A stretch of 13,406 nt of DNA from Candidatus Kapaibacterium sp. (lineage in GTDB: Bacteria > Bacteroidota > Ignavibacteria > Kapaibacteriales > UBA2268). Below are positions 9,570 to 12,052 of the stretch, in pieces. Each line of letters begins with the position of its first letter. Position 1 is the first letter of the stretch. The notes beneath the pieces are model-generated. The model was not told the origin of the DNA, ran no database searches, and saw only the letters and a list, made by a program, of their open reading frames with translations. The stretch covers positions 1 through 13,406 of the forward strand of contig JAONBD010000036.1 of assembly GCA_028376765.1 (NCBI GenBank), read 5' to 3'. The translations under genes were made by a program, and so were the position numbers.

Positions 9570-10952
9570 TTATTTCATTAACATATTAATATTTGCTTTC
9601 ACTTCATCATGAGTGAATTCTTTTTTTAAAATACCATTTTCAAAGACTGTCTCTAGCAGGTCAATATTTGTAGGGTTTTCTCGAACACTCTCAAATCCAT
9701 TTTCTGATTTAATCAACTGTAACCTTCCTTTCTTAGAAGTTTTACCTTTATCTGTGATTGGGTCTTTAAATACGTCATACCACTTGTCAGCTTTTCTAAT
9801 TGCACTACATTTAACTGCAAATTTCTGAGTATCTCGGTCGTGTTTCTGCAACAATCCTCCTCCAGAACCAAATGCTATATTTTCAGCAGACCATCCATTA
9901 ATTAGATAGTTTGCAAGTATATCTCTGACCATAGCTAAATCGATTCCGTCACCTTGAATGATTCTAATTTTAGGGTTTAATACTTTATATCCTTTTGAAT
10001 TGATTGTATAGCCAAACTTTTCGCCAAGTATATTTATAATTTTAAGAGTGATTTCTTCTGGGTTACCTGAATCAGGACGGACTATTAATGCCCCATCTCT
10101 ATTTAATATCTCATCTTTTAGTTCTGTACCCCATAGCTTCTCGCAAGCATTAAATATATCATAGCTATCGCTAACACAGGCAACTAATCCTGTAGGGTAG
10201 CTACTTAGCATATTCTTGAATGCTTCTAATTCATCATCCCAACTAGTAATTGTTGAGTGTTCAGAAGCTGGAATCGAAAATCCAGAATTGGCACTAGCTG
10301 AATAATATTTATTTAGAAGCCTCATTGAAATTAGATTATCTGTTCCTAAGAAGTTTATCAAATGTGCAGCTCCACCTATTGCCGCAGTTTCGGTTGATGA
10401 TACACCTCTCGAACCAAAATCATGTAACTTAAAATCAATACCATCTAATGAATCACTTGTCTTTTCATGAAATTCTTTTATTATTTCTTTAATTCCATGC
10501 GAATATGTCGCTACAGTACATGGATACCATATTCTTGAAAGAAGTGTCTCAAGGTAATTAGTAAGCCAATAAAATTCTGGGTCAGTATTCTCAATTGTCA
10601 TCATAACATTTTGAAATGGAATTTTCATACCTTCTGGTACTGCTTTAATCCTAATGGGTAGATGACCATCGTGCTTCTCTAGCAATCTTGTCCATGCCTT
10701 CTCATTGAAAATTGATTCAGTTGAGAAATGACTAGATAGTAATCCTTTTGCTTCTTGTATTTTTTCTTTAGTAACAACTTTACCTGTTAAGTATTCTTTA
10801 ATGTAGTATTGTAATCCGTAAAATATCACATCCTGAAATTTACCACCTCTACTTTCGTAGTAAGAATAAACAATCTCTGTGTCTTTAGGGTATTGCAAGT
10901 AATGACTAACTTTGTAGCTGTCTGTGTCTAGTATTATATTATTTGAAAACAT
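9570..10952 (-). CDS. nadV: Nicotinamide phosphoribosyltransferase (NAMPT/NadV)
   Basis: The 460-aa product aligns with NAMPT along its length. The N-terminus reads NIILDTDSYKVSHYLQYPKDTEIVYSYYESR (human NAMPT [31 protein letters not shown]). Further matches are VIFYGLQYYIKEYLTGKVVTKEKIQEAK, HDGHLPIRIKAVPEG, ENTDPEFYWLTNYLETLL, KLHDFGSRGVSS, IVRPDSGNP, IIQGDGIDL, ENIAFGSGGGLLQK and KKGRLQL. Confidence 0.95.
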   Translation of the reverse strand: MFSNNIILDTDSYKVSHYLQYPKDTEIVYSYYESRGGKFQDVIFYGLQYYIKEYLTGKVVTKEKIQEAKGLLSSHFSTESIFNEKAWTRLLEKHDGHLPIRIKAVPEGMKIPFQNVMMTIENTDPEFYWLTNYLETLLSRIWYPCTVATYSHGIKEIIKEFHEKTSDSLDGIDFKLHDFGSRGVSSTETAAIGGAAHLINFLGTDNLISMRLLNKYYSASANSGFSIPASEHSTITSWDDELEAFKNMLSSYPTGLVACVSDSYDIFNACEKLWGTELKDEILNRDGALIVRPDSGNPEEITLKIINILGEKFGYTINSKGYKVLNPKIRIIQGDGIDLAMVRDILANYLINGWSAENIAFGSGGGLLQKHDRDTQKFAVKCSAIRKADKWYDVFKDPITDKGKTSKKGRLQLIKSENGFESVRENPTNIDLLETVFENGILKKEFTHDEVKANINMLMK

Positions 10953-10957
10953 GATAA

Positions 10958-12052
10958 TTATCCTTCTGATTTGATTAATGAATCTAGTAATATATGATGC
11001 TCTGGCATCACATCGTCTTTGTTAATATCTCTTAGCTTAAACCATTTTAAAAATGCTATATCATCTGCTGGCTGAGCTTTGCCGTACATATAAGTTGCTT
11101 TATAGAAAACTGTAATAATCTTATCAATCTCATTTCTATATCTCCAATCATCAATTTTATGACTGGCAATATATTTGAAATCATTTACTTCGAGTCCAGT
11201 TTCTTCCATTACTTCTCTTCGTGCAGAATGCTCAAAATTAGTATCCGTTGGGTCTGTGAATCCTCCTACAAATCTATACTTTGATTCATTTGATTTTTTC
11301 CCAAGTAGTAGTTCATCATCTCTAACTATTGCAACATCGACCGTTGTATATACTTTAGGGTATTGATTAAATGTAGCATAGATATTACCTGCTCTAAAAT
11401 CTTTACTAGTATAATTATTACTTAATATATCTTCTCGAATCTGCGAACCAGCAACTGTAACCACGCTCTGTAATTCATAAGTTGAATGTTTTCCAGAATA
11501 ATGTGCAATGAAACTATCTCTTGAACCATAAAGAAGGATTAATGAATTCGGATGTATTTCAGCTATTCTCGTATCTAATGTCTTTGACCATAATTCATTT
11601 GATGACATATCAGGCAAAGGTATTACAGTGACATCGTCGAATTGGCTCTCAATCATATTCTTTCTTGACTCAAAATCAAGTGGATTACGCTTAGAAGATA
11701 AGACTGGTGTTACTCCAAGAAATATAACAATTTTTCTATGTTTTTTCTTTACTCGGTTAATCAATGATAAGTGACCTTCGTGCAAATCATCAACTTGAAA
11801 TCTACCTACTATTACTCCTACTGAAGATAGTTCAGGGTGTATTTTGTTAATCAAATCTGGGTTTAAACCCTGCCTTTGAATGATAGAGGTTGACGTTCGT
11901 CGACTAAGCATCGTTTGCTTAGAATATTTAAGGTAATCTTCACCTTCAGCATACTCTTTATCAAGTATATTAAAGAGTCCTTGCTTTGATAGTTTACCAC
12001 CATTAGACTCTATTAAATTTAATATTTCTGAAATTGCGTACTGTCTTTCCAT
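10958..12052 (-). CDS. natV: Bifunctional NMN adenylyltransferase / Nudix hydrolase (NadM-Nudix, NatV-like) with ~80-aa N-terminal extension
   Basis: The 364-aa product carries the nucleotidyltransferase motif VGVIVGRFQVDDLHEGH (archaeal/NadM-type GRFQPxHxGH). The Nudix box core REVMEETGL appears within GGFTDPTDTNFEHSARREVMEETGLEV. Its stop lies 5 nt upstream of the nadV start, forming the same arrangement as the KVP40 NadV/NatV pair. Confidence 0.85.
   Translation of the reverse strand: MERQYAISEILNLIESNGGKLSKQGLFNILDKEYAEGEDYLKYSKQTMLSRRTSTSIIQRQGLNPDLINKIHPELSSVGVIVGRFQVDDLHEGHLSLINRVKKKHRKIVIFLGVTPVLSSKRNPLDFESRKNMIESQFDDVTVIPLPDMSSNELWSKTLDTRIAEIHPNSLILLYGSRDSFIAHYSGKHSTYELQSVVTVAGSQIREDILSNNYTSKDFRAGNIYATFNQYPKVYTTVDVAIVRDDELLLGKKSNESKYRFVGGFTDPTDTNFEHSARREVMEETGLEVNDFKYIASHKIDDWRYRNEIDKIITVFYKATYMYGKAQPADDIAFLKWFKLRDINKDDVMPEHHILLDSLIKSEG

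Follow-up and report, generated by a model that had tools for sequence, protein, structure and literature searches.

The question raised by this locus was whether two adjacent genes for NAD+ synthesis from nicotinamide belong to a phage that overcomes host immunity or to the metabolism of the bacterium in whose assembly they lie. The window, i.e., the whole stretch of DNA that was analysed, corresponds to an entire GenBank contig (13,406 bp) from a metagenome-assembled genome (MAG) of Candidatus Kapabacteria, and its three right-hand proteins (MDC1068691-93) are labelled Candidatus Kapabacteria in GenBank. In an earlier note, the pair had been interpreted as a phage counter-defence system, NAD+ reconstitution pathway 2 (NARP2). 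We consider it likely that the two genes, nadM and nadV, instead form an operon that a bacterium of the Bacteroidota group, represented by the Candidatus Kapabacteria MAG, encodes itself, serving classical, non-deamidating nicotinamide salvage ('salvage II'). An ORF check recovered them exactly as the note had described, as adjacent minus-strand genes separated by a 5-nt spacer (10953-10957, 'TTATC'), with the NMNAT-Nudix gene upstream of nadV (Table 1).

Table 1. Features of the 13,406-bp window, in window coordinates
Feature	Position	Strand	Basis or remark
T4-type polynucleotide kinase-phosphatase (Pnkp)	2-784	-	Domain searches; runs off contig end
Rnl1-type RNA ligase	777-1796	-	Domain searches
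SPFH/Band7 protein	1799-2899	-	Domain searches
WYL/WCX transcription regulator	3737-4750	+	71% identical to orthologue in L008, which there precedes Hen1-Pnkp
XrtN-system VIT-domain protein	4830-7328	+	TIGR04477, 863 bits (cutoff 250)
Exosortase XrtN	7325-8644	+	TIGR04476, 328 bits (cutoff 200)
Conserved hypothetical protein, 273 aa	8731-9552	-	17 nt downstream of nadV; no Pfam or PDB match
nadV, nicotinamide phosphoribosyltransferase (NAMPT), 460 aa	9570-10952	-	Pfam, NCBIfam, PDB, residue alignment; GenBank MDC1068691.1
nadM/natV-like NMNAT-Nudix gene, 364 aa	10958-12052	-	Pfam, NCBIfam, PDB, AlphaFold/fold search, family alignment; GenBank MDC1068692.1
N-terminal extension, aa 1-77	11822-12052	-	Only in the small 364-aa clade
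NMN adenylyltransferase domain, aa 78-~225		-	Part of NMNAT-Nudix protein
Nudix domain, aa ~226-364		-	Part of NMNAT-Nudix protein
Proximal promoter-like site, TTGACA-17-TATATT	12087-12115	-	Promoter scan, 11/12
Palindrome TTGAC-N4-GTCAA	12102-12115		Overlaps -35 of proximal promoter-like site
Distal promoter-like site, TTGTCA-17-TATAAT with TG	12152-12180	-	Consensus match only
Large serine recombinase, N-terminal 376 aa	12277-13406	+	Divergent from nadM; runs off contig end

The assignment of the two proteins to a NAMPT (NadV) and to a fusion of a NadM-type NMN adenylyltransferase (NMNAT) with a Nudix hydrolase was borne out by Pfam, NCBIfam and PDB searches as well as by a fold search. NadV combines the NAMPT_N domain (PF18127; E = 1.1e-38, 131.9 bits) with the type II PRTase barrel (NAPRTase, PF04095; E = 1.4e-56, 192.3 bits) and scored 619 bits against the NCBIfam model NF006629, above the family cutoff of 405. 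The high similarity to the eukaryotic enzyme noted previously was confirmed by a PDB match to human NAMPT (E = 7e-152) and by 53% identity in a global alignment. In this alignment, the human residues D16, Y18, F193, R196, D219, H247, D279, R311 and D313 are kept (with Y13, F179, R182, D205, H232, R292 and D294 as the NadV equivalents of Y18, F193, R196, D219, H247, R311 and D313, respectively), as are GDG353-355, GGG383-385, R392 and K400. The sole substitution among the positions checked is that of human S275 by Ala. According to the established structural literature on NAMPT, Asp219 (human numbering) confers nicotinamide specificity, and His247 undergoes autophosphorylation.

The upstream protein gave Pfam matches to NUDIX (PF00293; E = 2.8e-13, 50.4 bits) and CTP_transf_like (E = 3.1e-05). 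Its NMNAT domain carries the hallmarks of a HIGH-superfamily nucleotidyltransferase (GRFQ..HxGH plus an ISxTxxR-like motif): the HxGH motif is represented by LHEGH (residues 90-94), located within GRFQVDDLHEGH (83-94), which has a two-residue insertion relative to 'GRFQ--PFHKGH' in Francisella, and ISxTxxR is replaced by AGSQIR (201-206), with R206 invariant across the family. The distinction between HxGH and HxAH is not usable as a clade marker in this family. The C-terminal domain contains a catalytic Nudix box, with REx2EE intact (R279, E280, E283, E284) and E280, E283 and E284 of RREVMEETG invariant among 63 sequences. Subfamily-wide, Gx5E is changed to Gx5D with a spacer of eight instead of seven residues, and the downstream 'DDWRYR' lacks the proline found there in the Francisella enzyme; because of these two deviations, the Nudix substrate is only putative. 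An AlphaFold model of the protein (pLDDT 81) had its best fold matches in both domains with the NadM-Nudix crystal structures 2QJT, 2R5W and 2QJO, two of which (2QJT and 2QJO) were also PDB sequence matches. Identity to characterised NadM-Nudix enzymes is about 20%, and the score against the best of the NCBIfam PRK05379 equivalog models (NF003786) was 62.5 bits, compared with a cutoff of 397; both figures count against the salvage reading. By sequence, the protein is a member of a divergent NadM-Nudix subfamily. The catalytic residues that the earlier note had singled out for inspection (NAMPT Asp/His, NMNAT HxGH) are all in place, so that both proteins look catalytically intact by motif; judged by their scores, the matches of both are far beyond chance.

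The activities predicted from these motifs would make up a short salvage cycle. NadV would convert nicotinamide and PRPP to NMN, probably using His232 (human His247) for ATP-dependent autophosphorylation, and the NMN would then be joined with ATP to give NAD+ by the HxGH-bearing adenylyltransferase domain encoded upstream. The fused Nudix domain is most likely a hydrolase of ADP-ribose or a related NDP-X, releasing AMP and ribose-5-phosphate, the latter of which could feed back into PRPP synthesis. Jointly, the two proteins would recycle both products of NAD+ cleavage. The pair most likely supports the NAD+ homeostasis of the cell itself, although its chemistry equals that of phage NARP2.

The neighbouring genes point to a bacterial setting. 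XrtN and its VIT-domain substrate, both recognised with equivalog-level scores, are bacterial cell-envelope sorting genes. The 273-aa gene is possibly co-transcribed with nadV, but it is not a regular partner of the latter; its family is Bacteroidota-wide (55-86% identity; members listed have 263-432 aa, nearly all of them 272-273 aa). A role of this gene as a third pathway component was rejected, given that its relatives lie in chromosomal contexts devoid of NAD genes. The recombinase, identical (100%) to MDC1068693.1, comprises Resolvase, Recombinase and Zn_ribbon_recom domains with a YSRVSS motif and is 89% identical to a 585-aa orthologue in the same position on L008, the contig with the most similar pair. 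RNA-repair genes, the WYL regulator and a Y-RNA-like element are located in a variable region next to the recombinase. The RNA-repair enzymes that had been reported beside the pair are real, as a Pnkp and an Rnl1-type ligase; their genes belong to a different transcription unit, at a distance of about 7.8 kb from the pair.

Bacterial genes (rpmG, a T9SS esterase, an ABC transporter, PBP1C) surround the most similar pairs, which have 83-98% identity. L008 (98% identical pair) is a syntenic contig of 56 kb in which the flanks are formed by ABC transporter/FtsX genes and PBP1C, whereas in L011 (83%) the pair is located between rpmG / a Na-H exchanger and an esterase with a T9SS tail, and the recombinase is absent. 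The next relatives (51-59% identity) are nrtR-nadM-nadV operons in the vicinity of dnaA, rpsL-rpsG-fusA or gatB; of the four genomes, two also have prs at a distance of a few genes. The NMNAT-Nudix protein (NatV) is 51-55% identical to chromosomal homologues (Kimura distance 0.66-0.77), compared with 40-45% for viral homologues (0.92-1.10); for NadV, the corresponding identities are 58-59% and 44-53%. In a neighbor-joining (NJ) bootstrap implemented in numpy, the clade of 364-aa proteins was monophyletic in all 500 replicates, while its attachment was not settled by NJ: a viral sequence fell within the next-larger clade 220 times out of 500, which counts against the cell-encoded reading. Scans of genome and metagenome contigs yielded no additional members of this clade. 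The 364-aa proteins represent one small lineage that has lost a linked nrtR and gained an orphan N-terminal domain; its neighbours are a serine recombinase and RNA-repair modules of a swappable kind.

We infer that nadM and nadV are co-transcribed from the promoter-like sites at 12087-12180, the proximal one of which also matches the Bacteroidetes -7 motif TAnnTTTG. In tblastn searches with the NrtR protein of L015 as a query, nrtR was absent from the window and from the L008 and L011 contigs, and it was found in L007, L014, L015/16 and L017. A GT-N7-AC-type palindrome is present upstream of nrtR in L015/L016 and L017; upstream of nadM in the window, no such (NrtR-type) operator was detected at up to three mismatches. 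Neither of the features that define an NrtR regulon, an adjacent nrtR and/or a GT-N7-AC operator, was therefore seen within the contig, and control of nadM-nadV in the window lineage may be NrtR-independent, unless an nrtR is present elsewhere in the genome. The adjacent nrtR of the chromosomal relatives is missing from the viral copies as well, an observation that speaks against a cell-encoded operon. An Rfam search of the region preceding nadM gave no credible match to a riboswitch or leader RNA. The palindrome over the -35 region is exact in the window and in L011, L012 and L013, where the spacer is changed and both half-sites are kept, and it occurs with one mismatch in L008 and L009. At up to one mismatch, the window contains two matches, a number equalled in 15 of 200 shuffles and thus not statistically unusual, and we regard the palindrome as a purely hypothetical operator.

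The N-terminal extension of the NMNAT-Nudix protein is conserved in P0001-P0004 in the family alignment. Between the window and L011, 37 of 51 nucleotide differences in this region affect the third base of a codon, and the changes are purely synonymous in 29 codons, compared with 11 in which the amino acid differs; the extension is under purifying selection. It was modelled as helical (pLDDT 55-72), had no Pfam match at E<=10 and, in a Foldseek search against PDB, retrieved nothing below E = 1. A profile of the extension, compared with 1.84 billion representatives, gave a single weak match, to a repeat protein that has the 'QRxGLxP' motif of the extension. Derivation from the winged helix of NrtR was considered and rejected on the basis of the Pfam result and of BLASTP, which aligned the NrtR of L015 only through the Nudix domains.

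Since the recombinase adjoins the pair at the edge of the variable region in both the window and L008, the pair could be mobile-element cargo rather than part of core metabolism. Taken by itself, this position counts against a cell-encoded operon. The pair would then be carried by a small integrative island, moved by the large serine recombinase, that protects the element or its host from NAD+-depleting effectors (abortive infection or interbacterial NADase toxins), with RNA-repair modules countering ribotoxins in parallel, i.e., a 'damage-reversal' island. The recombinase-nadM-nadV block of the window is 89.7% identical at the DNA level to that of L008, and the homology stops at 9564, 6 nt past the nadV stop codon (9570-9572) and before the 273-aa gene; for the WYL gene, identity is only 72.5%, and past nadV the two contigs differ in gene content. 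Their RNA-repair systems are of different types, T4-like Pnkp and Rnl1 in the window and Pnkp-Hen1 in L008, each beside a WYL regulator. A recombinase of 60% identity lies directly against the glmS 3' end, with unrelated cargo to its 5' side, as is typical of an island integrase, and the lack of nrtR is shared with viral copies. Against such an island, neither att sites nor evidence of excision nor an island-free comparator were found, GC is uniform along the window (0.30-0.36) with no island-type compositional break, and XrtN/VIT and a gene conserved across Bacteroidota would be atypical cargo. The recombinase is linked to the pair in two contigs only, the metagenome scan yielding no further clade members, and the pair of L011 lies among core genes with no recombinase within 3 kb. 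PADLOC identified no defence system in the window, returning only generic WYL and P-loop matches, and together with the bacterial contig and relatives this result leaves the description of the window as an anti-defence island unsupported. Mobility of the pair is possible; that it is the cargo of such an island is, on balance, unlikely. If true, NAD+ restoration and RNA repair would be combined on a non-phage element.

A more elaborate proposal is that NrtR was replaced in the small clade by the extension itself, which would bind the palindrome over its own -35 region to yield a self-regulating, NadR-like enzyme-repressor. Recombinase-nadM-nadV would then constitute a compact mobile NAD+-restoration cassette beside interchangeable RNA-repair modules, in a bacterial island that reverses the damage done by NADase and RNase toxins. 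We regard this scheme as speculative and improbable.

The cell-encoded salvage operon is also to be weighed against the reading of the earlier note, according to which a phage uses NARP2 to overcome Thoeris, DSR or SIR2-type defences. The contig would then be a fragment of a (huge) phage or a prophage that was wrongly binned into a bacterial MAG. Mis-binning could have happened with a MAG contig of 13 kb, which would count against a cell-encoded operon, and short MAG contigs are sometimes viral; the best phage matches of the NMNAT-Nudix protein came from uncultured phages of 462-642 kb, the T4-type Pnkp and Rnl1 (phrog_562, 242 bits) are phage-like, and the serine recombinase could serve as a phage integrase. 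This reading is nevertheless very improbable, as a PHROG search found no structural, packaging, replication or lysis gene on the contig, megablast of the window against 50,697 phage records gave zero matches, XrtN and its VIT substrate are present, the block in L008 lies between the ABC transporter and PBP1C, only about 11 kb apart, without phage genes, and identity to phage proteins is lower than that to chromosomal ones.

A pair of NadV and NMNAT-Nudix alone should not be taken as evidence of phage origin or counter-defence. NARP1/2 matches were found mostly in bacterial chromosomes, outside prophages, in the AntiDefenseFinder survey (PMC11724313), and most 'NARP2' calls made automatically in bacterial DNA are ordinary salvage pairs. 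Because the same enzymes form an old and widespread bacterial salvage route, nothing can be inferred about NAD-depleting immunity in the host, and the suggestion that the host population deploys it finds no support in this bacterial setting. Rescue of plaquing in the presence of Thoeris or DSR2 cannot separate housekeeping from counter-defence, because the chemistry of the pair is identical and any active NadV plus NMNAT would probably be positive. The value of the locus is modest and lies in recording a divergent subfamily of NadM-Nudix proteins, one that Bacteroidota commonly encode and that also occurs in their huge phages.

The equation of the pair with NadV/NatV of KVP40, and hence with NARP2, stood as far as the chemistry is concerned. 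NARP2 runs on 'classical NAD+ salvage enzymatic reactions' (Osterman et al., bioRxiv 10.1101/2024.02.11.579819), with Nampt and Nmnat(-Nudix) converting Nam and PRPP to NMN, and NMN and ATP to NAD+. Homologues of both occur in one genome here, as adjacent genes, and NadV is 46% identical to NadV of KVP40-like phages. Unlike in NARP2, the pair resides on a bacterial contig rather than in a phage or prophage and includes an NMNAT-Nudix protein of another subfamily. In tblastn searches, NatV had no match to KVP40-type phages at E<=1; the nine Vibrio records retrieved at this threshold were unchanged in number from E<=1e-5, and those named at 1e-5 are siphophages of 112-121 kb, not KVP40-like phages of ~245 kb. 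Whereas the two genes are adjacent in the window, nadV of the KVP40-like phage VH7D has no gene annotated as an NMNAT or Nudix protein closer than 4 kb. The NMNAT-Nudix subfamily is shared with the huge uncultured phages LR756500, LR756502, LR745206 and LR756504 and with Tunturiibacter phage Tunturi_5 (38-45% identity; genomes of 309-642 kb), and LR756502 also has the adjacent natV-then-nadV order, a point in favour of a phage origin. The phage NatV proteins, however, are more distant than the chromosomal Bacteroidota homologues, and the N-terminal extension is missing from them (that of LR756502 has 313 aa).

The closest known system is bacterial salvage II, defined as nadV plus nadM, in which NrtR, with ADPR as its effector, controls nadM-nadV and prs-nadV operons, including that of Cytophaga hutchinsonii (Rodionov et al. 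2008, PMC2330246). The window has the same two enzymes in the same nadM-then-nadV order, and its nearest homologues outside the small clade lie in nrtR-nadM-nadV operons of Bacteroidota chromosomes. The two-domain NMNAT-Nudix architecture and fold are those of NadM-Nudix of Francisella tularensis (2QJT/2R5W) and Synechocystis slr0787 (2QJO), from which the window protein differs in its low identity, its variant Nudix box and its scores below the equivalog cutoffs. Compared with the NrtR-regulated operons, the window lacks nrtR and its operator and has the orphan extension, the palindrome over the -35 region and the serine recombinase alongside.

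The nadM-nadV pair of the window is best supported as a cellular nicotinamide salvage operon. Its two adjoining minus-strand ORFs, with 5 nt between the nadM stop codon and the nadV ATG, lie exactly where the earlier note had placed them, and the enzyme identities proposed there (NAMPT and NMN adenylyltransferase-Nudix) were borne out by Pfam, NCBIfam and PDB sequence and fold matches. The nadV product matched Pfam NAMPT_N and NAPRTase, NCBIfam NF006629 (619 bits, cutoff 405) and human NAMPT structures (E 7e-152; global identity 53%). When aligned to human NAMPT, it was found to keep D16, Y18, F193, R196, D219, H247, D279, R311, D313, GDG353-355, GGG383-385, R392 and K400 (human numbering). 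The nadM product contains a cytidylyltransferase-like and a Nudix domain (Pfam). Its top PDB sequence matches were the bifunctional NadM-Nudix proteins 2QJT and 2QJO and stand-alone Nudix hydrolases, e.g. NudC, and its AlphaFold model (pLDDT 81) matched 2QJT and 2QJO across both domains. It carries the motifs GRFQVDDLHEGH, AGSQIR and RREVMEETG, with key residues invariant in 63 homologues. Since these residues and motifs are in place, the catalytic loss that would have counted against the earlier note's reading is not seen, and both enzymes look functional from their sequences. NadV would convert nicotinamide and PRPP to NMN, the NMNAT domain of NadM would convert NMN to NAD+, and the Nudix domain would probably dispose of or recycle ADP-ribose.

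Features of the window (GenBank accessions from Candidatus Kapabacteria bacterium)
Feature	Position	Strand	Remarks
T4-type polynucleotide kinase-phosphatase (Pnkp)	2-784	-	
Rnl1-type RNA ligase	777-1796	-	
SPFH protein	1799-2899	-	
YrlA-like element	3260-3354	-	YrlA match 3293-3354, tRNA match 3260-3316
WYL/WCX regulator	3737-4750	+	
XrtN-system VIT protein	4830-7328	+	863 bits, cutoff 250
Exosortase XrtN	7325-8644	+	328 bits, cutoff 200
66-bp segment	8646-8711		directly 3' of XrtN
Conserved hypothetical protein	8731-9552	-	273 aa
nadV	9570-10952	-	460 aa, MDC1068691.1
nadM	10958-12052	-	364 aa, MDC1068692.1
Large serine recombinase	12277-13406	+	truncated at right contig end; 100% identical to MDC1068693.1, 'recombinase family protein, partial'

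Relatives of the pair were found on bacterial contigs. On the 56-kb contig L008 (NatV 98%, NadV 96% identical to the window), the order is recombinase, nadM, nadV, unknown, Pnkp-Hen1, WYL and a Pnkp-HAD fragment, with an ABC transporter/FtsX cluster and PBP1C at the two boundaries. Locus L011 carries the pair (83-84%) without any recombinase, between rpmG/Na-H exchanger genes and a T9SS-tailed esterase gene. In L007, L014, L015/16 and L017 (NatV 51-55%, NadV 58-59%; largest contig 491 kb), the order is nrtR-nadM-nadV. Among the loci with annotated flanks (L014, L015/16 and L017), gatB is close by in L014, and dnaA, rpsL-rpsG-fusA and prs in L015/16 and L017; prs lies a few genes away in two of the four genomes. 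A GT-N7-AC-type palindrome precedes nrtR in L015/L016 and L017. This arrangement is the NrtR-regulated 'salvage II' pathway, examples of which are nadM-nadV of Synechocystis and nrtR-prs-nadV of Cytophaga hutchinsonii (Rodionov et al., PMC2330246). By distance, these NrtR-linked chromosomal proteins are nearest to the clade of 364-aa NadM proteins, which was recovered in 500/500 neighbour-joining bootstrap replicates, its attachment point not being settled by the bootstrap.

Neither nrtR nor an NrtR-type operator was found in the window. The 77-residue N-terminal extension of NadM occurs only in the 364-aa clade and gave no Pfam, fold or remote-homology match. It is truly coding: between the window and L011, 37 of the 51 nucleotide differences fall at third codon positions and 29 codons differ only synonymously (11 with amino-acid changes), and the enzyme domains show this pattern too. 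Upstream of nadM, a strong promoter-like site has its -35 element overlapped by the palindrome TTGAC-N4-GTCAA. L011 retains both half-sites although its spacer has changed; L008/L009 have an imperfect copy, and the palindrome is statistically not compelling.

The recombinase is transcribed divergently from nadM. Between the window and L008 the block of recombinase, nadM and nadV shares 89.7% identity, with homology stopping at 9564, 6 nt past the nadV stop codon. Identity is down to 72.5% in the flanking WYL gene, and gene content differs. A related large serine recombinase (60% identity) at locus L018 (3110-6843) reaches ~40 nt into the 3' end of glmS, like an island integrase, which suggests that the family targets a glmS-proximal site; Tn7-like elements also use this site. 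On these grounds the pair may be mobile cargo, although neither att sites nor further examples were found, and L011 has the pair with no recombinase. That it forms a self-regulating, recombinase-linked NAD+-restoration cassette inside a bacterial damage-reversal island is improbable.

Directly 3' of nadV lies the gene for the 273-aa protein, which has no Pfam domain or PDB relative. Its family is strongly conserved (55-86% identity, nearly all members 272-273 aa, range 263-432) and occurs throughout Bacteroidota, several-megabase genomes among them; its relatives show no linkage to NAD genes. The 66-bp segment is 80% identical to L008 19329-19394, directly 3' of PBP1C, and may be a shared terminator or small repeat element. 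The VIT-protein and XrtN ORFs overlap by 4 nt and lie co-directionally 3' of the WYL regulator (3737-8644, +), an unexpected pairing of this regulator with a protein-sorting system; L008 has Hen1-Pnkp at the equivalent position.

The earlier note had placed the pair in an anti-defence island beside RNA-repair enzymes. These genes are real, but belong to a separate transcription unit at a distance of ~7.8 kb, with the exosortase system between. Orthologous WYL/WCX regulators (71% identical) stand beside different RNA-repair systems in the window (2-4750) and L008 (13740-19395). In the window these are the T4-type Pnkp and Rnl1-type ligase genes together with SPFH, divergent from WYL. In L008 the bacterial Pnkp-Hen1 system replaces them (order WYL-Hen1-Pnkp), and of the T4-type Pnkp there is just a piece of the HAD domain, with 87% DNA identity to window 2-346. 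This suggests module swapping at a WYL-controlled RNA-repair locus. WYL regulators, which accompany both versions, have been proposed as sensors controlling RNA-repair pathways (PMC9503650), and a cellular RNA-damage response would account for the locus no less well than counter-defence does. The intergenic DNA separating the WYL gene from the SPFH-Rnl-Pnkp operon holds a partial match to the Y RNA-like family YrlA (RF02553; 47 bits against a gathering score of 69; E 3e-9 in the 841 nt searched) at model positions 23-85, taken as the tRNA-like module. A borderline tRNA match (30.6 bits, gathering score 29) overlaps it, and ARAGORN called no tRNA there. The element's sequence comprises a D-arm and two T-arm-like hairpins (GGUUCGAGUCC), its MFE fold is unremarkable (z = -0.76), and no counterpart was found in L008. 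The window contains no Ro60/Rsr (TROVE) gene; the bacterial Y RNAs described to date come from species with a Ro60 orthologue (PMC4201824). For the adjoining RNA-repair genes, the element might serve as a tRNA-mimic substrate or as a regulator.

A phage counter-defence setting, as claimed earlier, finds no support in the contig. The window is the entire 13,406-bp contig of a bacterial MAG, of uniform GC content, without capsid, terminase, tail, replication or lysis genes (PHROGs), without a phage DNA match to the whole window (megablast, 50,697 phage records) and without a defence system (PADLOC). From the pair one cannot conclude that NAD-depleting defences are in use in the host population.

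Judged by sequence identity, viral homologues are more distant than the chromosomal relatives: NatV of 462-642 kb uncultured phages, Tunturi_5 and IMG/VR contigs is 38-45% and viral NadV 44-53% identical to the window proteins. In phage LR756502, natV and nadV adjoin in the same order as in the window. The IMG/VR 'viral' contigs L004 (102-116) and L005 (9371-9385) carry a GCGT-N7-ACGC palindrome upstream of their natV-nadV homologues, the one preceding nrtR in chromosomal L015 and L017; tblastn found no nrtR gene in L004 or L005. KVP40-like phages gave a NadV match (46% identity) and no NatV match (tblastn, E<=1), and in VH7D no NMNAT or Nudix annotation occurs less than 4 kb from nadV. The NatV search returned 9 Vibrio records at 1e-5 and still 9 at 1, those named at 1e-5 being 112-121 kb siphophages. 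The assignment to NARP2, the NadV-NatV pathway of Vibrio phage KVP40, holds for the enzymes and reaction chemistry, which are the same, but not for the phage encoding that defines NARP2 and that the window pair lacks; for NARP2, its discoverers describe 'classical NAD+ salvage enzymatic reactions' (bioRxiv 10.1101/2024.02.11.579819).
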